From: Hominicoprocola fusiformis
GTDB taxonomy: Bacteria; Bacillota; Clostridia; Oscillospirales; Oscillospiraceae
Reading direction: 5' to 3'
DNA length: 24,729 nt
Assembly (NCBI GenBank): GCA_040095065.1
Contig: JBBNGO010000039.1
Location: forward strand, 1-24,729
Numbering within the stretch: the stretch's first letter is position 1; each line of letters begins with the position of its first letter. This document shows positions 501 to 14,997 of this stretch, piece after piece. Below the pieces are notes generated by a model. That model searched no databases, was not told where the DNA came from, and saw only the letters and a program-made list of their open reading frames with translations. The position numbers and the translations under genes are program-made.

Positions 501-503
501 ACT

Positions 504-548: not shown

Positions 549-621
549 GTGCATACGACTGTGCAACAAAACGGGTGCGGCGGGGTTCGGGTGAAAAGAG
601 AAAACAAAATGGGGGGACACG

Positions 622-936
622 ATGGAGAAAAAGGAGCTGGGGCGCGAGGATGTGATCGAGGCGCTCAAGAAGATCGCGTTCGGACGGGTGAACCGGGGCG
701 TGGAGCTGACATATCTGAGCGAGCCGACGGCGGAGCTCATCCGAAAAATGGACTTGTCGGCGGTGGCGGAATTCAAGAGAAACGCCAACGGGACGGTGGA
801 GGTCAAGTTCGTCGACCGGGTGAAGGCGCTGAGCGCGCTTTACGAGATGCTGGGGGCGGGGGACGCGAACGAGGCGGCGGAGTTCTTGGAGGCGCTGGAG
901 CAGGCGGGAGAGGAGAGAGATGATTGGCGGCCGTGA
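622..936 (+). CDS. Small terminase-like protein (Terminase_2/P27-type C-terminal region only, 104 aa)
   Basis: Segment VIEALKKIAFGRV...VEVKFVDRVKALSALYEMLG resembles the post-HTH oligomerisation part of P27-type TerS (..ELAKIAF....KL.DKLKALELLGKHLG). An in-frame TGA at 592-594 with no alternative start before 622 rules out a longer N-terminus. RBS GGGGGGA at 611-617. Positioned directly before TerL. Confidence 0.65.
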   Translation: MEKKELGREDVIEALKKIAFGRVNRGVELTYLSEPTAELIRKMDLSAVAEFKRNANGTVEVKFVDRVKALSALYEMLGAGDANEAAEFLEALEQAGEERDDWRP

Positions 937-2186
937 AGCAGTTTTCCACCAAGCAGAAGACGGCGATGACCTGGTGGGCGAACCCCAAGTACAAAGAGTA
1001 CGACGCGATCATCTGCGACGGGGCGGTGCGAAGCGGGAAGACGCTGTCGATGGGGATGGGCTTTTTCCTGTGGGCGATGCGGCGCTTTAGCGGCGAGCAA
1101 TTTGCACTGTGCGGGAAGACGATCGTGTCGCTGCGGCGAAATGTGCTGCACGAGATCTTGCCGAAGGTGACGGCGCTGGGCTTTCACTGCGAGGAGAAGC
1201 GGAGCGAGAATTTAGTGATCGTGCGAAGCGGAGGGCGGGAGAACCGCTTTTACCTCTTCGGCGGATACGACGAGGGGAGCGCGGCGCTCATCCAGGGCGT
1301 GACGCTGGCGGGGGTGCTGTTCGACGAGGCGGCGCTGATGCCGCGGTCATTTGTGGAGCAGGCGAGCGCGCGATGCAGCATATCGGGCAGCAAGCTGTGG
1401 TTCAACTGCAACCCCGAGGGGCCAATGCACTGGTTCTACCGCGAGTGGATCCTGCGCGCGGAGGAGCGCGGGGCGCTGTATCTGCACTTTACGATGGACG
1501 ACAATCCGTCGCTCTCGCCGCGCATTCGGGCGCGGTACGAAAAGGCATACAGCGGGACATTTTACCGGCGGTTCATCCTGGGCGAGTGGACGGCGGCGAA
1601 GGGGCTCATCTATGACTTCTTTACGCCGCAGGAGTATTGCGCTCGTGTGCCGGAAAAGCCGTGGGAGCGGGCGAGGATCTCCATCGACTATGGGACGGTG
1701 AATCCGACGAGTTTTGGCCTGTGGGCGCTCAAGGACGGCGTGTGGTACCGGGCGAGGGAGTATTACTTCGATTCGCGCAGAGAGGGGCAGCAGAAGACAG
1801 ACGCGGAGTATGTGGCGGACCTTAAAAAGTTCGCAGCGGGGGAGACGGTGGAAAAGGTAATCGTCGACCCGTCGGCGGCGAGCTTTATCGAGGCGCTGCG
1901 GCGCGAGGGCTTCCCCGTGAGCAAGGCGGACAACGATGTGGCGGACGGCATCCGCGTGACGGCGAACCTATTGAAGCAGCGAAAGATCGTGATCTGCGAG
2001 GGCTGCGAGAGCTGCCTTGCCGAGATCGCGGCGTACTGCTGGGAGGATGGCGGAACGGGAAGAGACCGGCCGAAAAAGGAGAGAGATCACGCGATGGATG
2101 AGATGCGGTATTTTGCCGTGTCGATCGCGAAAAAGGAACGCGGAGGCGGCATTGCGATGCGCGCGGTGGAGCGCGCGGCGCGATGA
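924..2186 (+). CDS. Large terminase subunit (PBSX/XtmB-type)
   Basis: Walker A GAVRSGKT, Walker B VLFDEAA, and nuclease-domain acidic motifs ISIDYG, VIVDPSAASF and HAMDEMRY. The ORF track uses a TTG start at 924 (RBS GGAGAGGAGAG at 907-917); ATG at 966 is the alternative. Overlaps terS by 13 nt. Confidence 0.9.
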   Translation: MAAVKQFSTKQKTAMTWWANPKYKEYDAIICDGAVRSGKTLSMGMGFFLWAMRRFSGEQFALCGKTIVSLRRNVLHEILPKVTALGFHCEEKRSENLVIVRSGGRENRFYLFGGYDEGSAALIQGVTLAGVLFDEAALMPRSFVEQASARCSISGSKLWFNCNPEGPMHWFYREWILRAEERGALYLHFTMDDNPSLSPRIRARYEKAYSGTFYRRFILGEWTAAKGLIYDFFTPQEYCARVPEKPWERARISIDYGTVNPTSFGLWALKDGVWYRAREYYFDSRREGQQKTDAEYVADLKKFAAGETVEKVIVDPSAASFIEALRREGFPVSKADNDVADGIRVTANLLKQRKIVICEGCESCLAEIAAYCWEDGGTGRDRPKKERDHAMDEMRYFAVSIAKKERGGGIAMRAVERAAR

Positions 2187-2211
2187 ACAAAACGGAAAAG
2201 GAGAGAACAGG

Positions 2212-3378
2212 ATGAAAGTACCCTGGCAGAAGGAGAGAAGCACGGGCGGCGAGACCGCCGTGCAGCTGCGCGGCGGCGGACGCAGTACATTCGGACGGCT
2301 TGAGAGCTATGTGCCGCTGCTGGATGGGGAGACAGCGCTTTACCGCGAGGTGCGCGAGGCGGTGCCGGTGGTGGACGCGGCCATCTGCAAGCTGATCCGG
2401 CTGACGGGCGGCGTGCGCGTGGCATGCGGCAACGAGCGGGCGGAGCAGGGCTTGCAGCGCTTTTTGCGCGAGGTGCCGGTGGGCAGAGGGCAGAGGGGCA
2501 TCAACGCCTTTTTGGACTGTTACCTCGATTCGCTTTTGACCTGCGGGCGCGCGGTGGGCGAGATCGTACCGGACGCGGAGGGGCGCGAGATCGCGGCGGT
2601 GCTGTGCGCGGACGTTTCGCAGGTGGAGGTGCGCGAGGGGGACAATCCGCTCGAATTCTGCCTGTGCGGTGTGGATGGCGGCGGGCGCAGCGTGCCGCTC
2701 GAGTATCAGGACCTACTGCTCTTTACACCGCTCAACCCCGAAGCGGGGCACCCTTACGGCGTTTCGATGCTGCGCTCGATGCCGTACTTAACGGGGCTGC
2801 TGCTGAAAATTTACGACGCGATGGGAAAGAATTGGGATCGCTGCGGCAATGTGCGCTTCGCGGTGACGTATAGGCCGCAGGACGGCGAGCTCGACCGCGG
2901 GGCGGCACAGGAGCGCGCCGAGCAGATCGCCGAGGAATGGTCGCGGGCGATGCAGGAGGGCAGAAACGGCAGCGTGCGCGACTTTGTATCGGTGGGCGAT
3001 GTATCGATCAAGGCCATCGGCGCGGACAACCAGATCTTGGACAGCGAGACGCCGGTACGGCAGATCTTAGAGCAGCTGGTGGCGAAGACGGGGCTGCCGC
3101 CGTTTATGCTGGGGCTGAGCTGGTCGTCGACCGAGCGGATGAGCTCGCAGCAGGCGGATATGCTGACAAGCGAGATCACGGCGCTGCGGCGCACGCTCGA
3201 ACCGGTCATCGACCGCATCTGCACGCTGTGGCTTAGGATGCACGGCTACGGCTGCCGTGCGGTGGTGGACTGGGAGGACATCAACCTGCAGGATGAGGTG
3301 GAGGAGGCCAAAGCGGCACTCTACTTGCAGCAGGCGCGAAAGCTCAGGCAGGAAAATGATGAAGCGGAGGGGAAATGA
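2212..3378 (+). CDS. Portal protein (388 aa)
   Basis: Positioned after TerL, with the size of an HK97/XkdE-type portal. ATG at 2212 is preceded by AAAGGAGAG. The 2017 start in the ORF track overlaps terL and is rejected. Confidence 0.8.
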   Translation: MKVPWQKERSTGGETAVQLRGGGRSTFGRLESYVPLLDGETALYREVREAVPVVDAAICKLIRLTGGVRVACGNERAEQGLQRFLREVPVGRGQRGINAFLDCYLDSLLTCGRAVGEIVPDAEGREIAAVLCADVSQVEVREGDNPLEFCLCGVDGGGRSVPLEYQDLLLFTPLNPEAGHPYGVSMLRSMPYLTGLLLKIYDAMGKNWDRCGNVRFAVTYRPQDGELDRGAAQERAEQIAEEWSRAMQEGRNGSVRDFVSVGDVSIKAIGADNQILDSETPVRQILEQLVAKTGLPPFMLGLSWSSTERMSSQQADMLTSEITALRRTLEPVIDRICTLWLRMHGYGCRAVVDWEDINLQDEVEEAKAALYLQQARKLRQENDEAEGK

Positions 3379-4313
3379 GCATGGAAGTGAGAAAAGAGAG
3401 CAATGGGCTCAAAAACAGCATGGTGACGCGCGAGGAACTGGCAATCATCAATCAGTTCACGAAGCGCGCGCTCAAAGAGGACGAGGTCTACACCTTTGCC
3501 GTGCGGCTGTGCGACAACGAGGTGGACCGGGACGGCGAGCGCTTTCCGCGCGCGACGCTCGAAGAGCTCGCGGAGCTGTTTGTGGGCAAAAGCGGCATCT
3601 TTGACCACGAGTGGACGGCGAAGGGGCAGGCGGCGCGCATCTACCGCACGGAGATCGTGGAGGAAGAGGGCGTTTGCTCGCAGGGCGAGGGGCGCTGCTA
3701 TCTCAAGGGCTATGCGTATATGCTGCGCGGCGGCGAGAATGATGCGCTGATCGCGCAGATCGAGGGCGGTATCAAAAAGGAAGTGAGCGTGGGGTGCAGC
3801 GTGGAAAGGTGCGTGTGCTCCATCTGTGGTGAGGACATCAACACCTGCGCGCACAAAAAGGGCGAAGTGTACGGCGGCAAGGTGTGCTGCGCGGAGCTTG
3901 TGAACGCGCAGGACGCGTATGAGTGGAGCTTTGTAGCGGTGCCGGCGCAGCCGAGAGCGGGCGTTTTAAAGCGCTGCGGCGGAGAGGACGCGGGCACGCT
4001 CAAGACGTTCGTCAAGCGGCGCGGGTCGAGAGCGAACCAGAGGGAGCTTGAAAGCCTTGAAAAGCAGGCGGAGGTCGGTAAGCGCTACTTGAGTGAGCTG
4101 CGCGGCGAGGTGAAGCGGCTGATGCTCGTGTGCGAGCAGGAGGCGGATGGCGAGGCCATTGAAAAGCTCGCGGAAAAGCTCGACGAGAGCGAGCTCAAGG
4201 AGATGGAGAAGCTGTATCGCGGGAAGATGGCGAAAAAGCTGGGGCTGCGCACGCAGCTCACTTACGGCGAGAAGACGAAAGCGGCGGAGGACGAGAGCGA
4301 CTTTCGCGTGTGA
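3375..4313 (+). CDS. Prohead serine protease (S78-like) fused to a C-terminal coiled-coil scaffold-like domain
   Basis: GIFDHEW and IEGGIKKEVSVGCS resemble the His and Ser motifs of HK97-family prohead proteases. There is a Cys cluster, CSVERCVCSICGEDINTCAH..GKVCC. The K/E/L-rich C-terminal half is typical of scaffolds. ATGA overlap with the portal stop. Confidence 0.7.
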   Translation: MSMEVRKESNGLKNSMVTREELAIINQFTKRALKEDEVYTFAVRLCDNEVDRDGERFPRATLEELAELFVGKSGIFDHEWTAKGQAARIYRTEIVEEEGVCSQGEGRCYLKGYAYMLRGGENDALIAQIEGGIKKEVSVGCSVERCVCSICGEDINTCAHKKGEVYGGKVCCAELVNAQDAYEWSFVAVPAQPRAGVLKRCGGEDAGTLKTFVKRRGSRANQRELESLEKQAEVGKRYLSELRGEVKRLMLVCEQEADGEAIEKLAEKLDESELKEMEKLYRGKMAKKLGLRTQLTYGEKTKAAEDESDFRV

Positions 4314-4371
4314 AAAGGAACAAAAAGCAGCGGCGCTTTTTGGATAGAACAACAGATCAAGGAGGAACGGT

Positions 4372-4725
4372 ATGAGCATTTCTTATGAGGGCATCGGCGA
4401 GTGGTGTGCAACGTTTGTTTGCGGCGCGGTCAGCGAGGGCGACATTGTGAAGGTGAGCGCGAACGGCACGGTGGGCAAGTGCACGGCGGGCGACGGCTTC
4501 TGCGGCGTGGTGCGCGCCGTCGCGCATGACGGCAAGGCCTGCACGGTGCAGCTCGGCGGCCTTGCGAGCGTGAAGTACAGCGGCACGGCGCCTGCGGTAG
4601 GCTTTAGCGAGCTGGTGGCGGACGGCTCGGGCGGCGTGAGCAAGCCGGGCGAGAACCAGAACGGCAGCAGCTATCTTGTGCTGAGCGTGGACAGCGCGGC
4701 GAACAAGGCTGTCATCAAGCTTTAA
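4372..4725 (+). CDS. Small Gly/Val-rich beta protein. Possible DUF2190-like head decoration or cement protein.
   Basis: 117 aa with RBS AAGGAGGA, located between the scaffold and the major capsid gene. The pattern of G..V..G repeats recalls DUF2190. Confidence 0.45.
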   Translation: MSISYEGIGEWCATFVCGAVSEGDIVKVSANGTVGKCTAGDGFCGVVRAVAHDGKACTVQLGGLASVKYSGTAPAVGFSELVADGSGGVSKPGENQNGSSYLVLSVDSAANKAVIKL

Positions 4726-4740
4726 GGAGGAGAAGGACAA

Positions 4741-5772
4741 ATGGCTTATCAGTATGAAAATGTGAAGCTCGAAAAGGGCATGTACGGTCAAAGCGGCAAG
4801 AGCTTTCTGAAGGTGCTCGAATCGCTCGACCCGAGCGAGAACTACAAGGGCACGGCGCTCGAGGGACTCGACGCCTTCCAGCGCCAGCTCAAGCGCTTTG
4901 ATATCCACGTTAAGGGCGCGGGCAGCGACATGGTGGAAAAGTTTTTCCACACGAGCGAATCGTCCGTGCTGTTCCCGGAGTTCGTCTCCCGCGTGGTGCG
5001 CCAGGGCATGGAAAGCGACATCCTGCCCGACATCACTGCGACCGTGACGAATTTTGACGGCATGGACTACCGCTCTATCGCGTCCGTTCCGACGGACGAC
5101 GACAAGGAGCTCAAGCGCGTGGAGGAGGGCGCGGGCATCCCGACGACCAGCATCCGCACGCAGGAAAACCTTGTGAAGCTCCACAAGCGCGGCAGAATGC
5201 TGGTCGCGTCCTATGAGGCGATCCGCTTCCAGCGACTGGACCTCTTCTCTGTGACGCTGCGCCAGATCGGCGCGTACATCGCGCGCATGCACTTAAAGGA
5301 CGCCATCGACGTTTTGATGAACGGCGACGGCAACAACAATGCGGCAACAAGCTATACCATCGGCGATGACGGCATCGGCGGCACGAAGGGCACGCTGAGC
5401 TATGACGCGCTGCTGGGCTTCTGGTCGCAGTTTGACCCCTATACGATGAACACGATGCTGATGGGCAGCGACATGATGCTCGCGATGCTCAAGCTCTCGG
5501 AGTTCCAGAACCCGCTGACGGGCCTCAACTTCCAGGGCACGGGTACGCTCGCCACCCCGCTGGGTGCGAAGCTCCTGCGCACGAGCGCAATGCCCGCGGG
5601 CAAGATCATCGGCCTTGATAAGAACTATGCGCTCGAGCGCATCTGTGGCAGCGAGGTGCTGGTCGAGTACGACAAGCTCATCGACCGCCAGCTGGAGCGC
5701 GCGGCCATCACGAGCATTTCCGGCTTTGCAAAGCCGTATCAGGAGGCCTCGAAGGTGCTGTCCTTACAGTAA
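4741..5772 (+). CDS. Major capsid protein (HK97-fold, XkdG-like)
   Basis: 343 aa with a strong RBS (AAGGAGGAGAAGG) in the canonical position after protease and scaffold. Confidence 0.8.
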   Translation: MAYQYENVKLEKGMYGQSGKSFLKVLESLDPSENYKGTALEGLDAFQRQLKRFDIHVKGAGSDMVEKFFHTSESSVLFPEFVSRVVRQGMESDILPDITATVTNFDGMDYRSIASVPTDDDKELKRVEEGAGIPTTSIRTQENLVKLHKRGRMLVASYEAIRFQRLDLFSVTLRQIGAYIARMHLKDAIDVLMNGDGNNNAATSYTIGDDGIGGTKGTLSYDALLGFWSQFDPYTMNTMLMGSDMMLAMLKLSEFQNPLTGLNFQGTGTLATPLGAKLLRTSAMPAGKIIGLDKNYALERICGSEVLVEYDKLIDRQLERAAITSISGFAKPYQEASKVLSLQ

Positions 5773-5792
5773 AAAGTAAGGAGGAAGAGCGA

Positions 5793-6173
5793 ATGGCGGA
5801 GAGCATGAGCGAGCAGATCTTTTCGATCGCGTGTGCGCTGAGCAAGGCGGACGAGAGCGAGAAGAGCATGCTCCGAATGATCTGCACGGCGCAGGAGGAG
5901 AGCCTTGTGCGCGCGCTGAAAGAGGGCGTCGCCAAGGAGGACTGCGAGAGCGCGTTTATCTGCGCGGCGTCGTGGTTGGCGGCGGCCGCGCTGGAGAGCG
6001 CGAGAGCGGGCGGGGAGGAGTTCTCCTCCCTGCGCGCGGGAGATCTCACGGTGACGAAACGTTCGTCCGATGAGGGGAGCAAAAGGCTGTCGCTGCTGCG
6101 TGAGCAGGCGTGGGCGCTGATGCGTCCGTATACGACGGACGGCGGGTTCTGCTTCCGCGGGGTGGAAGCATGA
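5793..6173 (+). CDS. Head-tail connector or adaptor protein (XkdH position)
   Basis: 126 aa with RBS AAGGAGGAAG, first of three small coupled ORFs between capsid and sheath. Confidence 0.55.
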   Translation: MAESMSEQIFSIACALSKADESEKSMLRMICTAQEESLVRALKEGVAKEDCESAFICAASWLAAAALESARAGGEEFSSLRAGDLTVTKRSSDEGSKRLSLLREQAWALMRPYTTDGGFCFRGVEA

Positions 6174-6493
6174 ATCGGGCACTGAGTGAGGCGTTCGCGC
6201 GCTATGGCATGAGCGTTTTGGTGCTGCACGGCGGAGAGACGGCGGAGACGAAGGCGTTTTTGCAGCTTGTGAAGAAGGAGAACGGCGAGGAGCCGTTCTC
6301 TGTGACGGCGCTGGGAGCGGTCGACGAGCAGTGTTGGCGGTATCTGGGCCCGGCGGACGTTGCGGTCGCAATGGGCGACTTTGTGCAGTGCGGAGAGAAG
6401 CGGTATGTCGTGCGCGCGGCGGGGCCGTTTTACGTGGGCGAGGAGATCGCCTACTACTGGGCGATGCTGCATCCGAAGGAGGAAGAGGCATGA
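6170..6493 (+). CDS. Head closure or connector protein (XkdI position)
   Basis: ATGA overlap with the previous gene at 6170-6173. The 6110 start in the ORF track is rejected. Confidence 0.55.
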   Translation: MNRALSEAFARYGMSVLVLHGGETAETKAFLQLVKKENGEEPFSVTALGAVDEQCWRYLGPADVAVAMGDFVQCGEKRYVVRAAGPFYVGEEIAYYWAMLHPKEEEA

Positions 6494-6999
6494 CGGCGGT
6501 CGGACAGGTGAAGCGCGCGGTGGCCGCGGCGATCGAGGCGGCGGGCTGCGCGGCGATCGAGAGTTACAGCGAAGAACAGCTCAAGCGGTATGCGACCGCG
6601 GTGGCGGCGGTCGGCACGAAGGAGACGGTGATCGAGGAGAGCGGCGCGATCGAATATCTGGGAGAAAAGGTCGACGAGGCGACGCAGGAGACGGTATCTG
6701 TCTACGGGAGAAAAATGCTGCTGACGCTGCTGACCGAGGTGTATGCGCCGAGGACGATGGGTGCGGCGGGCTGCGAGGAAGCGGCGGAGACGATCACACA
6801 GGCGATGATGACGGCGCTGCCGGAGGGGCTGAAGCTCAGAACATTGCAGTGGGGCAAGACCGGCTGGGACAAGACGACGGGCATGTTCCGGCTGGACGCG
6901 AGCGCGAAATATGCGGCGTACTTTGTCGCGGAGGCGGCGGAGGATGGGACGGTGTTTACCGATTTTGTATTGAAAGGCACGGTGAAAGAACGTGAATAG
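6490..6999 (+). CDS. Tail completion or terminator-type connector protein (XkdJ position)
   Basis: ATGA overlap at 6490-6493. 169 aa, directly before the sheath gene. Confidence 0.5.
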   Translation: MTAVGQVKRAVAAAIEAAGCAAIESYSEEQLKRYATAVAAVGTKETVIEESGAIEYLGEKVDEATQETVSVYGRKMLLTLLTEVYAPRTMGAAGCEEAAETITQAMMTALPEGLKLRTLQWGKTGWDKTTGMFRLDASAKYAAYFVAEAAEDGTVFTDFVLKGTVKERE

Positions 7000-8065
7000 T
7001 ACGATCCATGAGCGGCCGGGCGTGTATTCGTCCTACGACGCATCGAGCGTGGTGAGCGCGAGCGCTGCGGCGAAGACGATCGGCGCGGCAGCGGTGGCGA
7101 CGAAGGGGACGGCCAATAAGGTGGAGCTCATCACCTCGTATGAAGAGGGAAAGAGTGTATTCGGGGAGGATGCGAGCGGCGTGTATGGCATGAGCACGCT
7201 GCTCAAATTCCTCTTCGCCAACGGCGCGGGTGCAGTGAAGGCTGTGGCCGTGGGCAAGGACGAGAGTGAAGAGAAGGACTACGCGAGCGCGTTTGCGGCG
7301 CTCTCTGATGAGGAAGATGTCGGCGTGATGGTGTGCGACAGCGCGGCGCAGAGCGTGCATCTGCTCCTCAAAACGGCGGCAGAGGATGCCTCGGCGGCGA
7401 GACGCGAGCGCATCGCGGTCATCGGTGGTTCGGAAGAGACGGTCGCGCAGATGGTGAACCGCGCGAAGGCTGTCAACAGCGAGCGCGTAGTGCTGGTGGG
7501 ACCGGATATCGCATCGGACGACGGCGGTACGATGAGCGCGGTGTTTGCCGCGGCGGCGGTGGCGGCGGTGATCGCGGGAAACACCGACCCGTCCGTGCCT
7601 ATCAACGGCGCGGAGCTGACGCTTTTCGGCGCGGCGGGCAAGAGACTGAGTGACAATGAGATCGACCAGCTGGTGCGCGGCGGCGTGACGCCGATCGAGA
7701 CGGTGGGCGGCGTTTCCTCGCCGGTGCGAGGTATCACGACAAGGACTTCGAGCGGCGGGGCGGCGGACACGACGTGGCGCGAGCTGACGACCATTTTGAT
7801 CGTGGATGAGGTCATCCCGACGATCCGCAGCGCGCTGCGTACGCGCTTTGCCAGAAGCAAGAACACCGCGCAGAGCCGCGGGGCCATCCGCTCGCAGGTG
7901 GTGCTGGAGCTCGAGGGGATGAAGAGCCGCGAGATCGTGGACAGCTACGGCGAGGTGCTGGTGAGTGCGCTCAAGAGCGACCCGACGGTGTGCCTGGTGG
8001 AATTCAGCTTTACGGTGGCGCACGGGCTGAACCGCATCTATCTGACGGCGCACATCACGGTGTAA
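6992..8065 (+). CDS. Contractile tail sheath protein (XkdK-like, compact at 357 aa)
   Basis: The N-terminal HERPGVY motif is typical of sheath proteins, and the gene is followed by a tube gene. GTG start overlaps the upstream gene by 8 nt. Confidence 0.8.
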   Translation: MNSTIHERPGVYSSYDASSVVSASAAAKTIGAAAVATKGTANKVELITSYEEGKSVFGEDASGVYGMSTLLKFLFANGAGAVKAVAVGKDESEEKDYASAFAALSDEEDVGVMVCDSAAQSVHLLLKTAAEDASAARRERIAVIGGSEETVAQMVNRAKAVNSERVVLVGPDIASDDGGTMSAVFAAAAVAAVIAGNTDPSVPINGAELTLFGAAGKRLSDNEIDQLVRGGVTPIETVGGVSSPVRGITTRTSSGGAADTTWRELTTILIVDEVIPTIRSALRTRFARSKNTAQSRGAIRSQVVLELEGMKSREIVDSYGEVLVSALKSDPTVCLVEFSFTVAHGLNRIYLTAHITV

Positions 8066-8076
8066 GGAGGAAAAAT

Positions 8077-8466
8077 ATGGCGAATACGGTATTGCCGCTG
8101 AGCAGCGACATCTATCTCGAAGTCGACGGCAAAAAGGTGGCGGTGGTGCAGAGCTACACGACGAGAGCGACGCGCACGAGCCGCGAGATCGAGGCCTTTG
8201 GCGAAAACGAGCCGGTGGCGACGATCGCGGGCGCGAACAAGTACACGCTGGAGTTGAGCCGCCTGTACGCGACGGATGAGGCCATCAGCGACGGCATCAA
8301 CTTCTATGATCTGAACGACTTTTCGCTTGTGATCTGCAAGCCGGACAAGCGCATCATCTACTCGCAGTGCCGCTGGAGCAGCATTGAAGAGGCGGGCAAG
8401 CTCGGCGACCCGGCGGCGGAGAAGGTGACGATCATCGCGCGTAAGCGCATGGAGATCGCAAGCTGA
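8077..8466 (+). CDS. Tail tube protein (XkdM-like)
   Basis: 129 aa with a perfect RBS, AAGGAGG at 8064-8070, positioned after the sheath gene. Confidence 0.75.
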   Translation: MANTVLPLSSDIYLEVDGKKVAVVQSYTTRATRTSREIEAFGENEPVATIAGANKYTLELSRLYATDEAISDGINFYDLNDFSLVICKPDKRIIYSQCRWSSIEEAGKLGDPAAEKVTIIARKRMEIAS

Positions 8467-8849
8467 TGGACGAGCTTCTGCTGAACTTTTTGGGGCGCGA
8501 GCGGGAGAAGACGGTGCGCATCGGGGAGAGAACGTGCGCGATGCGGCTGCTTTCGGCCCGCGAGACGCTCTCGCTGCGGCGCGAGATCGCGCAGCTTGAC
8601 TGCGCCGACGAAGAAGAGCGTGCGTTGCGCGCGAACGCGGCGCTGCTCAAAAGAAGCCTGACGGAGGGCGGAGAGGCGGCCTTTGCAAGCGCGGAGGACG
8701 TTGAAAATGCACTGAGCGTCGGCGAGATCAACGAGCTGGTGCGGTGCTACGCGCTGCTTGACGGGGCGGAGAACCCGTCGAGCGAGGACGGGCGCGAGAA
8801 GGTGGAAGCGCTAAAAAAAGCATGGAGCACGCGCCCTACGAACGGCTGA
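8466..8849 (+). CDS. Tail assembly chaperone, short (G-like, XkdN position)
   Basis: 127 aa with a TGATG junction to the tube gene. The slippery site lies near its 3' end. Confidence 0.75.
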   Translation: MDELLLNFLGREREKTVRIGERTCAMRLLSARETLSLRREIAQLDCADEEERALRANAALLKRSLTEGGEAAFASAEDVENALSVGEINELVRCYALLDGAENPSSEDGREKVEALKKAWSTRPTNG

Positions 8850-9115
8850 AATGGCGCGTGCTCCGATATGCCGGCGCGCTGCCGAGCGAAAAGCGCGCGC
8901 AGGAGATGACGGACGCGGACTACCTCTATTGCCTTGTGCACGAGATGCTCGACCGCGAGGAGGCGATGGAGCGGCTGTGCCCCGAGTGCAGGACGCGCGC
9001 GGAGGAGGCACGGTGCAGCATTTGCGGCGCAAAGCTCGGCGAAACCGCAGGCGGCGGCAACGCGAGCTTTGATATGGCGCGCTTTATCCGCATGAAGGAG
9101 GGGCGAAAACCTTGA
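8466..9115 (+). CDS. Tail assembly chaperone, -1 frameshift fusion (GT-like). The frame changes at 8813-8819.
   Basis: The zero frame reads CTA AAA AAA GCA. A slip on A_AAA_AAA continues in the -1 frame as AGC ATG GAG... through ORF 8822..9115. That frame is open for at least 10 codons (back to 8786) before the site. Confidence 0.65.
8813..8864 (+). promoter_or_regulatory. Programmed -1 ribosomal frameshift signal (slippery heptamer plus stimulatory hairpin)
   Basis: A7 run at 8813-8819 in the A_AAA_AAA register. After a 4-nt spacer comes a perfect 12-bp GC-rich stem, GGAGCACGCGCC (8824-8835) paired with GGCGCGTGCTCC (8853-8864), with a 17-nt loop. Confidence 0.7.
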
Positions 9116-9663
9116 ATTACATCGAATGGGCGCTGCAAAGAGGCGCAGAGCTGTGGCGCGCGCGGGAAGAGGCGCTGAAAAAGCGCCTCTCCCTTGTGCC
9201 GGAGGGGACGGCGCAGAAAAAGGCGGCGGAGGCGCAGCTTTCGGAAGAGGAAGCCGCGGCGCAGGATGCGGAGATGAGCGGCGGCGCGGAAACTGTGGCA
9301 GAAGCAGCGGATGATCCGGTGGAGACGGCGGCGGTGCGGCTTGGGCAAAAGCTCGGGCTGGGTGCGACGCAAGAAGATGATGGCTCGGAGAGGGAGACGA
9401 CGTTTTCTGCCGATCTGGCGAGCACTGCGGCGGCGAACGCTGCGCTTCTGCGCGCGAGGGAGGCCGAGAGCGCGGACAATGCGTCCGACTGGATAAGAAA
9501 GCTCCTGAGCGCGGACGGCCGCGACGGGGCGAGCGCGGCGGCAGCGCGAGGGAAAAATGACTTTTCACTCGCGCAGGAGCAGGAGGTGCGCGAGACGGAG
9601 TCGTTTTCGCTGAGCTTAGAGCGCGACGCACGCCGATACGACGGCGGATTTTTATTTTACTGA
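9112..9663 (+). CDS. Protein in the tape-measure position (183 aa, Ala/Glu-rich, low complexity). Putative minimal tape measure.
   Basis: TTG start coupled to the upstream stop (TTGA at 9112-9115) with RBS GAAGGAGGGG. It lies between the chaperone pair and the LysM/XkdP-like gene, which is the XkdO slot. Confidence 0.45.
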   Translation: MNYIEWALQRGAELWRAREEALKKRLSLVPEGTAQKKAAEAQLSEEEAAAQDAEMSGGAETVAEAADDPVETAAVRLGQKLGLGATQEDDGSERETTFSADLASTAAANAALLRAREAESADNASDWIRKLLSADGRDGASAAAARGKNDFSLAQEQEVRETESFSLSLERDARRYDGGFLFY

Positions 9664-9678
9664 GAAAGGGGCGGGAGG

Positions 9679-10242
9679 ATGAACCTTGCACCGATGCGAT
9701 ACAAGGATTATGTCTGGCCGCACAACCCGGAGACCTACACCATCTCGTTCAAGCGGCAGGTGGCAGTGGCGAAGGTGCCGTTCGGGCGCTACGGGATGCA
9801 GGATCTCGGAATGAGCTACCGCGTGATGGAGGGCGAAGGCGTTTTTGCGGGGAAGGGCGCCTACGACGAGTTCAAAAAGCTGGCATCGGTCTTCTATCAG
9901 GGCGGGCCGGGGCTGCTGATCCATCCGGTGTGGCAGGCGTCGCAGGCGTACTTTGTGTTGCTGGAACTGGCGCAGCAGCCGCTTGAAAACTACGTGCGCT
10001 ACCGCTTTGCCTTCTGGGAGACGAGCCCACTCGATACGTCGCTCATCCGCGTGAGCGGCGGGAGCGGCAATGCGGGCACGGGGACGAAAACGGCGAGCTC
10101 GTACTACACGGTCAAGCGCGGCGACACGCTGTGGGGCATCGCGAACACGTATGGCGTGACGCTGACGGCGCTTTTGAACGTGAATCCGCAGATCAAAAAT
10201 CCCAACAGGATCGCCGTGGGAGAGCGGGTGACGCTGCCGTGA
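9679..10242 (+). CDS. LysM-domain tail or baseplate protein (XkdP-like)
   Basis: The C-terminal segment YYTVKRGDTLWGIANTYGVTLTALLNVNPQIKNPNRIAVGERVTLP is a canonical LysM motif. Confidence 0.85.
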   Translation: MNLAPMRYKDYVWPHNPETYTISFKRQVAVAKVPFGRYGMQDLGMSYRVMEGEGVFAGKGAYDEFKKLASVFYQGGPGLLIHPVWQASQAYFVLLELAQQPLENYVRYRFAFWETSPLDTSLIRVSGGSGNAGTGTKTASSYYTVKRGDTLWGIANTYGVTLTALLNVNPQIKNPNRIAVGERVTLP

Positions 10243-11180
10243 TGAAGGGGTATCTGACGACGTGCGACGGTGCGCAGTTTGAGCTGCCGACGCTGCTGAA
10301 GTGGGAATTTTCCTACACGGGAAGCGTGCCGTGCGACAGCTTTACGCTCAAGTGCGCGTATGAGCCCGCGATGGCGGAGGTGCTGCGGCGGGCGGTGCGC
10401 TTCACGGCGAGAGAGGACGGCACGGTCGAATTTGCGGGCGTTGTGGACGAGTGCGGCGTGACATGCGATGAAAAGGGCTTGCAGCTTGAGGTGAGCGGAC
10501 GCGGCATGGCGGCGCTGCTGCTCGACAATGAGGCAGAGAGCGTGAGCTATCAGTGGGCGACGATGGAGGAGATCCTCAAAAACCATGTGACGCCGTACGG
10601 CATCGTGTGCACGGGCTATGACGCGGTGACGGCTGCGGCACGGTACCGCGTGGCGAACGGGTCGAGCCAGTGGAAGGCGCTGAACGATTTTGCAGCGCTG
10701 CACGGAGGGATCGCACCGTATTTCGACAAGACGGGCGCGCTGGAGGTGAAGAAAAACCGCAAAGCCGCGCGCGTGAGCATTGACGCGAAAACGCCGGTGA
10801 CGGCGCTTTCCTACTGCGATAAGCGCTACGGCGTGATCGCCGAGGCACTGGTGGTGGACAGCAAGGCGGGCGTGAAGCAGAGCGTGAAAAACGAGGCGTT
10901 CTGTGCTCGCGGCGGCACGAGCAGGCGCGTATTTTACGTGCCGGCGCGCAGCGGCACGCAGGCAATGCGCTACACGGGGGAGTATCAGATCGCAAAGTCG
11001 AAGGAGGGCGCGGAGACGCTGCGCGTGACGATCGCGGGGCGGTTCACCGCCGCGCCGGGGGATATCGCGGCGGTGAGCGGGACGAAGATCGGCATCGCAG
11101 GCCATTTCCGCGTGATCGAGTGCGTGAGGCGCTTTGGCGAGAGCGGAGAGGCGTGTGAAGTGACGATGCAGAGGGAGTGA
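10242..11180 (+). CDS. Baseplate hub or late-control-D-like protein (XkdQ-like)
   Basis: 312 aa with a TGATG junction at 10240-10244. Size and synteny match XkdQ. The 10131 start in the ORF track is rejected. Confidence 0.6.
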   Translation: MKGYLTTCDGAQFELPTLLKWEFSYTGSVPCDSFTLKCAYEPAMAEVLRRAVRFTAREDGTVEFAGVVDECGVTCDEKGLQLEVSGRGMAALLLDNEAESVSYQWATMEEILKNHVTPYGIVCTGYDAVTAAARYRVANGSSQWKALNDFAALHGGIAPYFDKTGALEVKKNRKAARVSIDAKTPVTALSYCDKRYGVIAEALVVDSKAGVKQSVKNEAFCARGGTSRRVFYVPARSGTQAMRYTGEYQIAKSKEGAETLRVTIAGRFTAAPGDIAAVSGTKIGIAGHFRVIECVRRFGESGEACEVTMQRE

Positions 11181-11186
11181 GAGACG

Positions 11187-11567
11187 ATGTGGCTATCGAG
11201 AAAGCTAAGCCAGTATGAGATGCAGGACGTGGCCTCGGCACAGGACGGAACGGTGACGGTCGAGGGCGGTGAGCTGGCGGTATTCAGCAGCGGGGAAAAG
11301 CGCGAGGTGAAGACCGCCGCGCCCGGCGGCTATGAGTGGCAGCCGAAAAAGGGCGAGGATGTGCTGGTGGTGCGCGGCGGGACCTTTGGCGAGGAGGCCT
11401 ACGCCGTGGGCGCGGTGGGGCAGAGCGCGGACGACCTGGCACCCGGCGAGGTGCGCATTCGCTCCGCCGCAGCGGGGACGGAGATCGTGCTGCGCAACAA
11501 CGGGCGCATCGACATCAACGGGCTCCTTTTCATCAACGGGATGCCGTATCTGGGAATGGGAGGCTGA
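11187..11567 (+). CDS. Baseplate spike or plug protein (XkdR/gpV-like)
   Basis: 126 aa in the syntenic position. Confidence 0.5.
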   Translation: MWLSRKLSQYEMQDVASAQDGTVTVEGGELAVFSSGEKREVKTAAPGGYEWQPKKGEDVLVVRGGTFGEEAYAVGAVGQSADDLAPGEVRIRSAAAGTEIVLRNNGRIDINGLLFINGMPYLGMGG

Positions 11568-11569
11568 GG

Positions 11570-11923
11570 ATGGAGCTGAAGATCAAAGACCGCGATTATG
11601 TGGCCGACGGCGCGGGCGGGCTCGTGTGCGTGAGCGGCTGGGACGAGCTGCTCGAACGCGTGCTCTTTAAGCTGAGTGTGCGGCGCGGAAGCTTTGCGCT
11701 CGCACCGGAGCTTGGCAGCAAGCTGCACCTTTTATGGCGGGAAAAGGGCGAGAGCCGCGCGACGGCGGCAAAGCAATACGTGGCCGAGGCACTGGCGGAT
11801 GAAAAGGGTCTGAGCGTGACGGGCATGGAGCTTGCGGAAAAGAATGGATTTTTGGAGCTGCGCGTGCTGCTGCGCTATGAGAACGAAACGGGCGAGGCGG
11901 TCGTGACGATAGGGGGAGAGTGA
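11570..11923 (+). CDS. Baseplate wedge protein (XkdS/gp25/gpW-like)
   Basis: 117 aa, ATG at 11570 with RBS GGGAGG, directly before the baseplate J gene. Confidence 0.55.
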   Translation: MELKIKDRDYVADGAGGLVCVSGWDELLERVLFKLSVRRGSFALAPELGSKLHLLWREKGESRATAAKQYVAEALADEKGLSVTGMELAEKNGFLELRVLLRYENETGEAVVTIGGE

Positions 11924-11926
11924 AGA

Positions 11927-12994
11927 ATGGAAGAGCTGAACGCGATCTACGAGCGGATGCGCGCGATCTTTGCCGAGGAGGCGGGCTTTGTGCCGAACGA
12001 CGGCTGCGACGCGATGGTGCGCCTCTATGCGCTGGCGAGCGAGGTACAGTCGCTTCTGGCGCAGGCGGACTGGGTGCTGGATCAGAGCTTTCCGCAGACG
12101 GCGGTGGGGCAGTATCTCGACTATCACGCCGAGACGCGGGCGCTGACGCGCCTTCCCGCGGCGAAGGCGGCGGGTGTGCTGCGCTTTTCCGCGCCGTCGG
12201 CGGCGGTGACGGATTATGAGATCGACGCGGGAAGTGTGGCGATGACGAGCGGCGGCGTGCGCTTTGAGACGACGGAGAAGGCGACGCTTGCAAAGGGCGA
12301 AACGTATGTGGATGTGCCGGCGAGCGCCGTGGAGGCGGGGGCGAGCGGCAACGCCATCGCGGGCGCGATCCATCTGATGTCCGTGTATCCGGTGGGCATC
12401 ACGCAGTGCACAAATCCTGAGGCGTTTTCCGGCGGCAGCGACGAGGAGAGCGACGAAAAGCTGCGCGAGCGCGTACTAGCAAGCTACAAGCGCCTGCCGA
12501 ACGGTGCGAACGCGGCGTTTTACGAGCAGGAGGCGATGAGCTTTCCGAACGTGGCGGCGGCGAAAGCGGTCGGCCGCGCCCGCGGCATCGGCACGGTGGA
12601 TGTGTATGTTTCGACGCACGCGGGCGCGCCGGATGAGAAGCTGCTCGGCGAGATCGAGGCGGTCTTGCAGAAAAAGCGCGAGATCGCGGTGGATGTGGAG
12701 GTCAAGGCGCCGACAGAGAAGACCGTCAACATGAGCGCGGAGCTGACGGCGGAGCAGGGCTGGACGATACAGGAGATCACCGATGCGGCGACGGCGGCGC
12801 TGCAGGCGTACTTTACCGGTGAACGGCTGGGCGAGGCGGTGTATACGGCGAAGCTCGCGAGCATCCTCTACGGTGTGGAGGGCGTGAAGAACTGTCACCT
12901 GCTCACGCCGGACGAGGATGTGAGCGTGAGCGCGACGGAGCTACCGGTGCTCGGCACGGTGACGATCACGGAGATCGGGGCGGGTGAGGCATGA
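11927..12994 (+). CDS. Baseplate J-like protein (XkdT-like)
   Basis: 355 aa. Size and position are typical of the Baseplate_J family. Confidence 0.7.
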   Translation: MEELNAIYERMRAIFAEEAGFVPNDGCDAMVRLYALASEVQSLLAQADWVLDQSFPQTAVGQYLDYHAETRALTRLPAAKAAGVLRFSAPSAAVTDYEIDAGSVAMTSGGVRFETTEKATLAKGETYVDVPASAVEAGASGNAIAGAIHLMSVYPVGITQCTNPEAFSGGSDEESDEKLRERVLASYKRLPNGANAAFYEQEAMSFPNVAAAKAVGRARGIGTVDVYVSTHAGAPDEKLLGEIEAVLQKKREIAVDVEVKAPTEKTVNMSAELTAEQGWTIQEITDAATAALQAYFTGERLGEAVYTAKLASILYGVEGVKNCHLLTPDEDVSVSATELPVLGTVTITEIGAGEA

Positions 12995-13569
12995 CATATT
13001 ATGACTATCTCTGCCGCCTTTTGGAGCCGATGCGCGTTTATCGTACCGAGCGCGGCACGCTGAGCGGCGGAGAGCTGTACGCAGCGGGCGCGGCGCTGGA
13101 TGAAGCGGACGGCGCGATGGAATACGCCGAGCAGGAGGGCCTTTTGCAGACGGCGGAGGGCGAGGGCCTTGCAAGGCGGGAGAAGCTCTTTTCCCGCTGC
13201 CCGGTCAGCGTTTCGACTGCGCTGCGGCGCGAGGCCATCGCGGCGCTCGCGCGCATCAACGCCGACAGCTTCACGCTGGATGCGATCAACTCGACGCTCA
13301 GCGGCTGCGGCATCAAGGCGCTGGCGGAGGAGACGGAGAAAAAAGGAACGGTCAAGGTCTGGTTCCCGAACACCGTGGGCGTGCCGGATGAGTTTTCGCA
13401 GGTGGAGAGCATCATCCTCGATATCATCCCGTGCCATTTGCTGGTGGAGTTCTACTTCCGGTATCTGACGTGGCTCGAGTGCGAGAGAGTGGGATTCACG
13501 TGGCAGAGTGTGGAGGACGCGCACCACACGTGGGAGAGCTTTGAAAAGGCGGTGCCGGAGGAAGAATGA
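12991..13569 (+). CDS. Baseplate or tail protein (XkdU/gpI-like)
   Basis: 192 aa, ATGA-coupled to the J-like gene in the syntenic position. Confidence 0.5.
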   Translation: MTYYDYLCRLLEPMRVYRTERGTLSGGELYAAGAALDEADGAMEYAEQEGLLQTAEGEGLARREKLFSRCPVSVSTALRREAIAALARINADSFTLDAINSTLSGCGIKALAEETEKKGTVKVWFPNTVGVPDEFSQVESIILDIIPCHLLVEFYFRYLTWLECERVGFTWQSVEDAHHTWESFEKAVPEEE

Positions 13570-13862
13570 CGGAACAGGAGATCTCGGTCAAGCTGACGGA
13601 GACCGAGCAGCGCGCCAAGTCGAACACGCACCGCATCGAAAAGCTGGAACAGCAGCAGAAGGACCTGAATAAGCTGGTAACGGCAGTGGAGGTGCTCGCC
13701 TCGCGCGAAAAGGGCGTGGAGACGGACGTCAAGGAAATCAAGGCGGACGTGAAGACCATCACGCAGAAGGGCGGAAAGCGCTGGGATGCGATGATCGACC
13801 GCGTGCTGTACGTGCTCATCGGGGCGGCAATCTCCCTGCTGATGACAGGGGGGAGCTTATGA
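13566..13862 (+). CDS. XhlA-like membrane protein of the lysis module
   Basis: N-terminal coiled coil (EQRAKSNTHRIEKLEQQQKDLNKL) plus one C-terminal transmembrane helix (VLYVLIGAAISLLMTGG). ATGA-coupled. Confidence 0.6.
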   Translation: MTEQEISVKLTETEQRAKSNTHRIEKLEQQQKDLNKLVTAVEVLASREKGVETDVKEIKADVKTITQKGGKRWDAMIDRVLYVLIGAAISLLMTGGSL

Positions 13863-14131
13863 AAAGGAAACGCACGAGCTTTTCCAAACTGTTGCTGCTG
13901 CTCGAAAGCGCGATCGTGCTCTATACGACGTATCAGGGCTTCGGGATCGCGAAGCTCGCGATCGAACTGGGCTTTATGGGCACGCTTCCGTGGATTGCGA
14001 CGATGGTGACGGCGGCGTGGGGAGCTTACGGCACGAGCGCCGCGTGCTACTATGCCAAGGCAAAGGCGGAAAATACGGCGGGCGGCGTGACGTATGAAAC
14101 GGTGTGCCGCGGGCAGGACTGCGAGGGGTGA
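13859..14131 (+). CDS. Putative holin or lysis membrane protein (two predicted TM helices)
   Basis: Basic N-terminus MKRKRTS, with hydrophobic segments LLLLLESAIVLYTTY and LPWIATMVTAAWGAYG. ATGA-coupled. Confidence 0.5.
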   Translation: MKRKRTSFSKLLLLLESAIVLYTTYQGFGIAKLAIELGFMGTLPWIATMVTAAWGAYGTSAACYYAKAKAENTAGGVTYETVCRGQDCEG

Positions 14132-14137
14132 GAGAGC

Positions 14138-14329
14138 ATGGAGCTTTTGAAAAAGAGACTGGCGAATCTTTTGAGCGTGAAGAGCATCGTGACGCTGTGC
14201 CTGACGATCACGTTCTGTGTGCTGACGGTGCAGGCAAAGGTGACGCAGGAGTTTAACACGGCGTATCTCATGGTGATCGCGTTTTATTTCGGCACGCAGA
14301 ACGGCAAAAACGCGCAGGAGGAAACGTAA
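14138..14329 (+). CDS. Putative holin (63 aa, two TM helices, charged C-terminus)
   Basis: Hydrophobic segments IVTLCLTITFCVLTV and YLMVIAFYFG with the tail NGKNAQEET. Directly abuts the endolysin start (TAAATG). Confidence 0.6.
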   Translation: MELLKKRLANLLSVKSIVTLCLTITFCVLTVQAKVTQEFNTAYLMVIAFYFGTQNGKNAQEET

Positions 14330-14980
14330 ATGCGCCACAGCAGGAGCATCAGCGACCTGCGCGCGGACGTGGCGGAGAATTGCCGGACGCTGCTTATGCT
14401 CGCTGAGCGCGAGGGGTTGAGCGTTCTGGTGACGGAGACGGTGCGCGATGCGGAGTATCAGCGGATGCTCGCCGAGAAGGGCTACGCGGCCAAAGGAGCG
14501 GTGACGCCGTCGTTCCACGCCGAGCATGCAGGATTGGCCTTTGACATTTGCAAAAATGAGGTGGGGCACGAGTATGACGATCCCGCGTTTTTTGCGCGGA
14601 TGGGGGAGATCGGAAAGCGAGTCGGATTTTCCTGGGGAGGAGACTGGGGGAGCTTTCCCGACCGGCCGCATTTTCAGTGGGACGCGGGCGGAGTGTACAC
14701 GAGCGCGATGATCCGCGCGAAGCGCTATCCGCCGCCCATGCCGCGCTATGAGGAGGAAGAGATGACGCAGCAGCAGTTTGACGCGATGATGGAAAACTAC
14801 CTGAAAAGACTGGCGCAGCAGACGCCGGCGTCCTGGAGCGCGGAGGCGCGCGCCTGGGCGGAGAAAAACGGCCTGATCGCGGGTGATGAGGCGGGGAACA
14901 AACAGTACCGCAGCTTTTTGACGCGCGAGCAGATGGCCGTGCTGATGCAGCGCTACGACGCGATGCAGCGAGGCAAATGA
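14330..14980 (+). CDS. Endolysin: peptidase M15 (VanY/L-Ala-D-Glu peptidase-type) with a C-terminal SLH-like wall-binding segment
   Basis: Zn-ligand pattern SFHAEHAGLAFD ... DRPHFQW. The C-terminal WSAEARAWAEKNGLIAGDEAGNKQYRSFLTREQMAVLMQR resembles one SLH repeat. Confidence 0.8.
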   Translation: MRHSRSISDLRADVAENCRTLLMLAEREGLSVLVTETVRDAEYQRMLAEKGYAAKGAVTPSFHAEHAGLAFDICKNEVGHEYDDPAFFARMGEIGKRVGFSWGGDWGSFPDRPHFQWDAGGVYTSAMIRAKRYPPPMPRYEEEEMTQQQFDAMMENYLKRLAQQTPASWSAEARAWAEKNGLIAGDEAGNKQYRSFLTREQMAVLMQRYDAMQRGK

Positions 14981-14997
14981 CAGAATGGCAAATGAAA

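Follow-up and report, generated by a model that had tools for sequence, protein, structure and literature searches.

A cluster of phage-type head, contractile-tail and lysis genes lies directly against a core catabolic operon in a 24,729-nt stretch of Hominicoprocola fusiformis DNA (hereafter the window), and this arrangement raises the question whether the cluster is a prophage, the decayed remnant of one or a particle system maintained by the bacterium. The original prediction made on this DNA had proposed a domesticated system resembling a gene transfer agent (GTA). The analysis carried out here argues very strongly for a domesticated particle system under selection. The reading preferred for its origin and role, to which a probability of about 0.55 is given, is that of a domesticated myovirus remnant, inherited vertically in Oscillospiraceae since before the genera split, arranged as a host-controlled operon and packaging host DNA non-specifically.

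As predicted, the cluster occupies 14,359 bp of one strand, from the small terminase (TerS) to the endolysin. It comprises 24 co-directional genes on the forward strand (622-14980) that form one operon, and an independent gene caller applied to public metagenome contigs returned the same gene coordinates. Overlaps are found at 12 of the 23 gene junctions (-13, -4, -4, -4, -8, -1, -28, -4, -1, -4, -4 and -4 nt), all those listed beforehand being correct, and the widest intergenic gap is 58 nt. Profile searches revealed a gene set restricted to structural and lysis functions, with no integrase, repressor, replication or moron gene in the window, in agreement with the original prediction. The operon is closed by a terminator hairpin (CCGGAGGGGAGCCCCTCCGG, 15001-15020, + strand) with a T-run reaching position 15031; this terminator, which had been placed 18 nt after the endolysin gene, is present at a distance of 20 nt from the stop codon. 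It is followed by the anticipated catabolic operon, which encodes the hydroxyglutarate pathway of glutamate fermentation (gctA, gctB, gcdA, hgdC, hgdA, hgdB and gcdB).

Conservation and chromosomal setting of the cluster

One genome per species was scanned, yielding 188 stretches with a relative of the tail sheath protein, and the locus comparisons described below were carried out with the best 80 of these 188. The host belongs to the 'Oscillibacter sp. ER4' group, and its sheath is 98% identical to that of strain CLA-AA-H269. All 80 loci come from Oscillospiraceae, including Oscillibacter, Dysosmobacter, Flavonifractor, Pelethomonas, Pseudoscilispira and many metagenome-assembled genomes (MAGs). 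Wherever a locus extends over enough DNA, it carries genes g01 to g20 in unchanged order, and the span from the large terminase (TerL) to the gp48-like baseplate gene ranges from 11.3 to 13.1 kb. Intact genes were found in 63 of 66 assessable loci for TerL, 71 of 71 for the portal, 75 of 76 for the capsid, 80 of 80 for the sheath, 77 of 77 for the tail tube and 66 of 66 for Baseplate J. Altogether, the large genes are intact in more than 95% of cases, over about 80 species whose proteins share 55-98% identity. Single stops occur in two loci (L064 and L081), and in two others (L052 and L058) TerS was undetected and the TerL match covers 58% of the protein, the rest of the cluster being intact; these last two could serve as natural packaging-defective controls.

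The chromosomal position is also conserved. Within the ER4 clade, about a dozen species share the genes on either side of the cluster, from the HAD hydrolase gene to thyA upstream and gctAB downstream. Oscillibacter valericigenes An907 has a sheath of only 58% identity and still carries gctAB downstream and recG upstream. Nine further genomes carry recG about 1-5 kb 3' of the gp48-like gene. The flanks in distant species consist of ordinary host genes (two-component system, cstA, prfC, nrdD, uvrD, gerA and others), with no integrase and no phage open reading frame (ORF) of fibre size in them. No empty site was found among 34 contigs with identical gctB, and all 10 distinct contexts carry the cluster. 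A contig labelled Alistipes onderdonkii (L019, CAVDWO010000018.1) also contains the cluster; since its flanking genes are of Oscillospiraceae type (PNP 91% and racemase 92%), it is almost certainly mis-binned.

Pairwise ratios of non-synonymous to synonymous substitution rates (dN/dS), calculated against eight relatives, were below 1 for all 24 genes (about 0.02-0.6), with values of 0.03-0.14 for the capsid, 0-0.11 for the tube, 0.07-0.21 for TerL, 0.12-0.28 for the sheath and 0.38-0.61 for the protein in the tape-measure position; terminase, portal and capsid together gave 0.03-0.24. The dS values of the cluster are similar to those of the upstream host genes, and the GC content at third codon positions (GC3), 0.823 for the cluster, nearly equals the 0.833 of the host operon. 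The identity of five cluster proteins tracks that of RecG at about 1:1 over 45 species pairs (Pearson 0.91, Spearman 0.90), the pairs not being independent of each other and recG being linked to the cluster. Taken together, the synteny, dN/dS values, GC3, RecG tracking and host flanks favour an old, chromosomally fixed and selected element rather than a circulating prophage. The comparative test suggested by the original prediction thus revealed the same locus beside gctAB in related species, dN/dS below 1 and no empty site. The claim that the cluster is maintained and not decayed is borne out by the genes kept intact across species under these dN/dS values, and by the conservation of the frameshift signal and of the coupled junctions.

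A lysogeny and replication module might have been located beyond the left end of the window, as the original prediction had cautioned. The upstream 10 kb has been read from ten long contigs, the exact TerS protein being present in 311 blocks of public assemblies. These 10 kb contain genes for a HAD hydrolase, a PNP/UDP phosphorylase, an Asp/Glu racemase, ThyA, FolA, RecG, MazE and a glycosyltransferase, together with a small divergent pair that includes a helix-turn-helix (HTH) protein. Neither an integrase nor a repressor/antirepressor module is encoded there, and replication genes, fibre genes and att-type boundaries are likewise absent. The caveat is resolved by this result: a lysogeny module just upstream is ruled out by the housekeeping content, and an upstream region devoid of integrase, immunity, replication and fibre modules favours a structural-only element. 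The divergent pair consists of a 64/74-aa ORF and a 76/79-aa Xre-type HTH protein, exists in two allelic versions among strains (those of contigs L001 and L003), and may be a swappable cassette or the relic of a regulatory module. Positions 1-498 of the window are a diverged copy (86% and 72%) of the DNA flanking this pair 5 kb upstream, the corresponding segments being 4364-4656 and 5351-5540 of contig L001.

Predicted gene functions and control of the operon

All cluster genes of the window described in this section are encoded on the forward strand. TerS (622-936, 104 aa) aligns only to positions 58-130 of the 141 in Pfam Terminase_2, so that the N-terminal HTH part is absent; position 622 is the first possible start after a stop, with no earlier start codon. 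Similarly short, HTH-less TerS proteins of 90-113 aa are found in the ER4 clade, in Pelethomonas and in loci L047 and L068. TerL (924-2186, 420 aa) matches phrog_2 (1e-49) and PF03237 and has an intact Walker A motif (GAVRSGKT), and the portal (2212-3378, 388 aa) matches phrog_30703 (1e-174) and PF04860. The next gene (3375-4313) encodes a 312-aa protein that was assigned to no family by sequence; its AlphaFold2 (AF2) model, with a confidence score (pLDDT) of 77, matches predicted prohead proteases in BFVD (best E 2e-18). The model combines an N-terminal beta-rich domain with a C-terminal helical part, and residues H78 and S138 are invariant; the protease match together with the helical C-terminal part identifies it as a prohead serine protease-scaffold fusion. 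A Foldseek search of this model against PDB returned nothing, and PDB sequence searches with the protease-scaffold, capsid and sheath proteins returned nothing meaningful.

A small head protein (4372-4725, 117 aa; phrog_4588, 5e-30), which is a virion structural protein of decoration or scaffold-like type, precedes the major capsid protein (4741-5772, 343 aa; phrog_3922, 6e-119; PF25209). The latter is encoded by the best-conserved gene of the cluster, with 73-99% identity across 80 species. From their position, a weak match to the head-tail adaptor family phrog_541 and a match to phrog_25177, the following three genes (5793-6173, 6170-6493 and 6490-6999) probably encode head-tail connector or completion proteins. 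Related head modules that lack a sheath were observed in two faecal virome scaffolds, L012 (MT835508.1, 22791-27705) and L013 (MT835952.1, 427-8293). They encode a TerS with the HTH part, a TerL of 53-56% identity and a portal, protease and capsid of 59-62%, and in L013 four small ORFs after the capsid gene are followed by LysM/hub homologues. The lack of a sheath in both scaffolds indicates that a related head module has been joined to other, possibly tail-reduced architectures.

The tail module begins with a contractile sheath (6992-8065, 357 aa; phrog_279, 1e-47; PF04984 and PF17482). The 129-aa protein that follows (8077-8466) is presumed to be the tail tube because of its size and its position after the sheath; it matches phrog_27038 (4e-61), a family annotated as unknown function, and its conservation among relatives is 64-100%. 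A tail assembly chaperone pair is formed by a G-like gene (8466-8849) and an extension in the -1 frame (8822-9115), which carries a Cys4 zinc-ribbon and gave weak zinc-ribbon matches. The two ORFs overlap by 28 nt, and a perfect -1 slippery heptamer (A_AAA_AAA) is located at 8813-8819, so the intact chaperone frameshift signal described in the original prediction is present, with the downstream ORF in the -1 frame.

The place of the tape measure is occupied by a protein of only 183 aa (9112-9663) that matches no family. A conserved N-terminal helix and the C-terminal motif ERDARRYDGGFLFY enclose a variable middle of low complexity; the AF2 model of this protein was mostly of low confidence (pLDDT 57) and was left out of the fold search. 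The gap between tube and LysM genes, 1213 nt in the window, measures 489-1501 bp in the 80 genomes and 495-1249 bp in IMG/VR relatives. This gap holds a 160-280 aa protein together with either a frameshifted G/GT chaperone pair or one unframeshifted chaperone, or else a single fusion of 156-202 aa. All versions end in (E/Q)RDARRYDGGFxL(Y/F), and a DNA-motif scan located RDARRYDGGF in 62 IMG/VR contigs, always at the C-terminus of an ORF of 116-298 aa. No long relative was obtained either in a word-indexed search (218 matches, all of 298 aa or less) or in an exhaustive profile search of 1.84 billion representatives (54 matches, all of 223 aa or less). A full-length tape measure, which had been reported as missing, is therefore absent from the window and from every relative found, with a protein of 116-298 aa in its place. 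Strains at least 97% identical differ by in-frame deletions in the low-complexity centre, which leave proteins of 135-185 aa (homologues P0203-P0217); these deletions are many and independent, and the N- and C-termini are always kept. Tape measures usually set about 0.15 nm of tail length per residue; if this rule applies, rulers of 116-298 aa would give tails some 20-45 nm long.

The baseplate genes are of P2/Mu type. They encode a hub-associated protein (9679-10242, 187 aa; Pfam LysM, 5e-15; DNA_circ_N, Mu gp43-like, 9e-7), the hub, similar to Mu gp44 and P2 gpD (10242-11180, 312 aa; phrog_177, 2e-29; weak Gp44-like_2nd), and a 126-aa protein in the Mu gp45/P2 gpV slot (11187-11567; phrog_25991, 1e-21, unknown function) that is presumed from its position to be the central spike. 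These are followed by a sheath initiator similar to gp25 and Mu gp46 (11570-11923, 117 aa; phrog_975 and phrog_43; weak PF07409 and PF10934), a Baseplate J-like wedge protein (11927-12994, 355 aa; PF04865, 5.5e-53; phrog_6, 3.5e-74) and a Mu gp48/P2 gpI-like protein (12991-13569, 192 aa; phrog_521, 1e-18; weak PF10076), whose gene is the last conserved structural gene. NCBIfam models gave no match to ten unannotated cluster proteins. The genes after the gp48-like gene encode only 98, 90, 63 and 216 aa, with no ORF of fibre size, and no fibre gene was found at this point in any species' locus; the lack of a tail-fibre or receptor-binding gene in or adjoining the cluster was correctly predicted.

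The lysis cassette encodes an XhlA-like protein (13566-13862, 98 aa; phrog_937 'hemolysin', 3e-11; Pfam XhlA sub-threshold, 13 bits), a 90-aa membrane protein (13859-14131), a 63-aa holin-like protein (14138-14329) and a 216-aa endolysin of the M15 peptidase type (14330-14980; PF13539, 2e-9; phrog_6523, 2e-19), with an additional phrog_13256 match (7e-18) within the accessory genes at 13566-14329. In many species a host gene starts 100-400 bp after the gp48-like gene, so that lysis genes do not adjoin the structural genes everywhere.

The non-coding DNA before TerS, about 680 bp long, contains two strong tandem intrinsic terminators on the forward strand (hairpins 455-496 and 503-521, each followed by a T-run), which should stop transcription arriving from upstream. 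An inverted repeat (GTGCATACGACTGTGCAAC, 549-567, + strand) lies about 55 nt 5' of the TerS start. Its family consensus, TTGCAC-N6-GTGCAAC, recurs at a fixed distance from TerS in 39 of 61 species loci when up to two mismatches are allowed, compared with 1.1% of random 350-nt windows, and its distance to the start codon is kept with both short and full-length TerS. The repeat is presumably the operator or a promoter element of the operon. Three loci have a second copy, which lies within an Xre-type HTH gene in L093 and within the cluster in L068 and L085; these copies are likely chance matches. No regulator gene was found inside the cluster. The only strong sigma-70-like promoter in positions 1-15600 is that of gctA (TTGATT-17-TATAAT, 15171-15199), which serves the gct operon; the particle operon has none, and this fits dependence on another sigma factor or an activator.

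Proposed host-DNA packaging and rival explanations

In the sequence of events proposed here, a regulator or sigma factor encoded elsewhere would act at TTGCAC-N6-GTGCAAC and turn on the operon in a subpopulation of cells. The protease-scaffold, portal and capsid proteins would form proheads, and TerL together with TerS, whose DNA-recognition domain has been lost in this clade, would fill them by a headful mechanism with chromosomal DNA without sequence preference. A very short contractile tail would be built on the P2/Mu-type baseplate around the ruler-like protein of 116-298 aa, and XhlA, the holin and the M15 endolysin would lyse the producer cell, releasing particles that carry random host DNA. 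Receptor-binding proteins, and in many species the lysis genes too, would be encoded at other loci, as in RcGTA. Particles with random host DNA would make this a GTA-like (viriform) system. Non-specific packaging of host DNA is considered somewhat more likely than not, and productive delivery of that DNA to recipients somewhat less likely than not.

Several known systems resemble the cluster in part. PBSX of Bacillus subtilis has the same gene order from TerS to tube, chaperone, tape slot, LysM and hub, and onward through small baseplate proteins, Baseplate_J, a gp48/XkdU-like protein, an XhlA-type protein, holin and endolysin; both elements are chromosomal, not self-propagating and contractile-tailed. 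PBSX, however, is about twice as long, with its own regulators (xre and xpf), a very long tape measure (XkdO) and fibres (XkdV/W), and the present cluster lacks regulators of this type, a long tape measure and fibres. Similarity to PBSX is limited to generic families (sheath, LysM and Baseplate_J) and the weak XhlA match, and the tube and chaperone matched no PBSX-type Pfam or NCBIfam model. The PBSX synteny put forward in the original prediction stands as an order of functions and positions with generic families in common; the profile searches gave no sign of close homology.

RcGTA, too, encodes head and tail in about 14-15 kb and has no genes for replication or integration. It shares a TerS without DNA-binding domain (in the present family, in this and some other clades only), vertical conservation throughout a lineage under purifying selection, a shortened tail and, presumably, regulation and accessory parts located outside the cluster. 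It differs in being siphovirus-like, without sheath, unrelated in sequence and with its lysis genes always elsewhere, and its packaging of about 4 kb and its gene transfer have been shown experimentally. FpGTA of Faecalibacterium is likewise a candidate GTA of Gram-positive anaerobes, near-ubiquitous in its genus, from a gut Oscillospirales host and with a TerS without obvious DNA-binding domain (PMC12946183). Unlike the present cluster, it is podovirus-like, consists of two operons of 10.5 and 5.5 kb without sheath or tube, and carries a fibre/receptor-binding protein gene in the second operon, whereas none is adjacent here; its particles, their proteomics and DNA of about 9 kb have been shown (PMC12946183). 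Compared with RcGTA and FpGTA, the present system is known from its genes alone. R-type tailocins (pyocin R2 and diffocin) and extracellular contractile injection systems (eCIS) are chromosomal and share the sheath, tube and P2/Mu-type baseplate, with hub, gp25-like, J-like and I-like proteins; they differ in having long tape measures and fibres and no terminase, portal or capsid, and a tailocin or eCIS is ruled out by the complete, conserved head and packaging module. A phage-inducible chromosomal island (PICI), or its capsid-forming type, is ruled out by the full tail module and the lack of int and rep genes, and an autonomous temperate myovirus by the lack of contiguous integrase, repressor and replication genes and att boundaries. 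The cluster is a contractile-tailed, fibre-less, mini-ruler relative of GTA/PBSX-type elements that is conserved across a major gut family.

The main rival of GTA-like packaging is a PBSX-like role in lysis or killing. A PBSX-type 'phibacin' would form particles, maybe with DNA, and be selected for something other than gene transfer, either because the contractile tail kills competitors or because lysis of a subpopulation frees DNA, vesicles or public goods. The gene order and the XhlA-type lysis cassette are those of PBSX, which according to PMC12946183 packages 13 kb of host DNA but does not inject it, and the contractile-tail and baseplate genes equal the head genes in conservation. Nevertheless, it is hard to see how a particle with a mini tape measure and without fibre or receptor-binding genes would recognise a target and penetrate its envelope. 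A pure killing or lysis function would not require terminase, portal and capsid to rank among the best-conserved genes, as they do, and many species have no adjacent lysis cassette. This explanation is accordingly judged unlikely, although it is well ahead of the remaining two. If the cluster were instead part of an element that is still mobile, such as a multi-locus or helper-dependent phage or a satellite with integration, replication and fibre functions encoded at other loci or supplied by a helper, its wide distribution would reflect horizontal spread. The mosaic recombination between species (L020, L015 and L026), the different neighbours in different genera, the alternative left junction at a repeat in contig L004 and the related head modules with other tails in L012 and L013 would fit such an element. 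The 80 loci, however, contain no integrase, excisionase, primase or att-like repeats at either end, and there is one copy per locus set. Divergence at about 1:1 with RecG, identical neighbours within clades with no empty site, fully ameliorated codon usage and the lack of any IMG/VR contig above 30 kb with a relative make this improbable.

The other rival, a functionless defective-prophage relic that merely persists, could account for the missing TerS and truncated TerL in L052 and L058, the single stops in L064 and L081 and the highly indel-prone centre of the mini tape measure. It is close to refuted by the integrity of more than 95% of the large genes across about 80 species, by dN/dS values well below 1 for all 24 genes and by the conserved frameshift signal, coupled junctions and upstream operator-like element.

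The domesticated, host-DNA-packaging reading also faces points that weigh against it. TerS proteins of about 150-155 aa that retain the HTH part (positions 6-129) are found in the Oscillibacter/Dysosmobacter clade, about half of the family, so lost DNA recognition is not a family trait; the predicted absence of a DNA-binding region in TerS holds for the window and some clades but not family-wide. Particle formation, cargo and a capsid capacity below 14.4 kb are suppositions of this reading, the tube and spike are assigned by position only, no receptor-binding protein is encoded in or beside the cluster, and with so short a ruler it is uncertain that the tail would be a functional injection device. 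Moreover, the neighbouring gct genes evolve more slowly than the cluster proteins, and mosaic recombination between species has occurred, as in phage modules. In L020 the head genes have a dS of about 0.1 versus about 0.55 for the connector and sheath genes (window 5793-8466), in L015 the sheath has a dS of 0.05 amid neighbours at 0.5, and in L026 the tube has a dS of 0.04, which indicates homologous exchange of cluster segments between related species. Contig L004 carries a 98.4% identical cluster in another upstream context (1-9344: acyltransferase, MscS, M19 peptidase, TetR and SSF transporter); its breakpoint relative to L001 falls exactly at the repeated element, and the junction is either a strain rearrangement or a chimeric assembly. 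Finally, the virome scaffolds described below may be bacterial contamination, deposited because of their phage-like genes.

No autonomous phage relative of the cluster was found in INPHARED or IMG/VR. INPHARED yielded no close cultured phage; apart from unannotated virome scaffolds it gave only matches of about 27% with phages of Caulobacter and Achromobacter, and the sheath relatives in IMG/VR all lie on contigs of 29.5 kb or less with the same minimal layout. A scaffold from a Mexican faecal virus-like particle (VLP) virome spans window positions 1-11018 and a further 7.5 kb of host DNA upstream of them, and the endolysin end and gctAB are found on another scaffold of that virome; scaffolds with host flanks fit the presence of host DNA in particles. 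Nine IMG/VR 'viral genomes' of about 12.5-14 kb have ends that coincide with the cluster ends (L096, L112, L137, L140, L151, L169, L177, L183 and L186), and GenBank virome records label the cluster 'Bacteriophage sp.'. By these labels, viromics catalogues count a chromosomal operon as a virus.

Full-text literature searches found no description of the Oscillospiraceae cluster. GTA-like packaging has been described in Ruminococcaceae and Oscillospiraceae by Borodovich et al. 2026 (PMC12946183), including a read-length peak of about 5.9 kb in Onthomonas that was not linked to the present cluster (PMC12946183 and supplement); the Onthomonas MAG was searched, and a GTA operon candidate was obtained only in a Faecalibacterium MAG (PMC12946183). 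The original statement that no such system was known in high-GC Clostridia has been partly overtaken by the 2026 publication of FpGTA and of Oscillospiraceae packaging, and it still stands in that no Oscillospiraceae gene cluster was given there (PMC12946183). In Pelethomonas, GTA-like packaging was likewise reported and its gene cluster was not identified (10.64898/2026.07.08.737213), and the two Pelethomonas genomes in the present set (L037 and L082) both carry the cluster. Two VLP-sequencing studies have presented Oscillospiraceae as prominent GTA-like packagers in human and mouse gut without finding the genes, and the cluster is present in the genus where the gene search had failed. It is the best available candidate for the packaging machinery of this family, and that it is the missing gene set behind GTA-like chromosomal packaging in gut Oscillospiraceae is a tentative proposal, judged less likely than not.

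A concrete, family-conserved candidate makes the source of this packaging testable, and cultured carriers include H. fusiformis CLA-AA-H269, O. valericigenes, O. ruminantium and Dysosmobacter segnis. If the cluster encodes a true GTA, gene flow in a dominant gut family would have its own vehicle under host control, and viromics pipelines would need to treat the cluster as a host organelle. It would be the first bona fide GTA with a contractile tail, with an unprecedentedly short ruler, a stubby tail of few sheath rings and receptor-binding parts elsewhere. Such a GTA would also be of ancient origin and almost universal in a family to which some of the most abundant anaerobes of the human gut belong. 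A contractile tail that combines so short a ruler (116-298 aa) with a lack of fibres would test ideas on tail-length determination, and the loss of the TerS HTH part in some clades, with the promoter in place, would offer a natural series for the loss of packaging specificity during domestication.

Non-coding features of the window

At the gathering threshold, Rfam gave no match in the whole window. At E of 1 or less, only sub-threshold leader, sRNA and microRNA-precursor matches on the terminator hairpins were obtained in the 5' region, with no riboswitch. A tRNA scan of the window found none, and consequently there is no tRNA att site. Near-perfect, terminator-shaped palindromes of about 42 bp, resembling repetitive extragenic palindromic (REP) elements, recur in intergenic positions (window 455-496), and the first of the two tandem terminator hairpins upstream of TerS is a copy of this 42-bp palindrome. 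Further copies were located on contig L001 at 26-67, 4392-4431, 5498-5539 and 9368-9409, and a separate 36-bp palindrome (window 22575-22610) lies 3' of hgdB.

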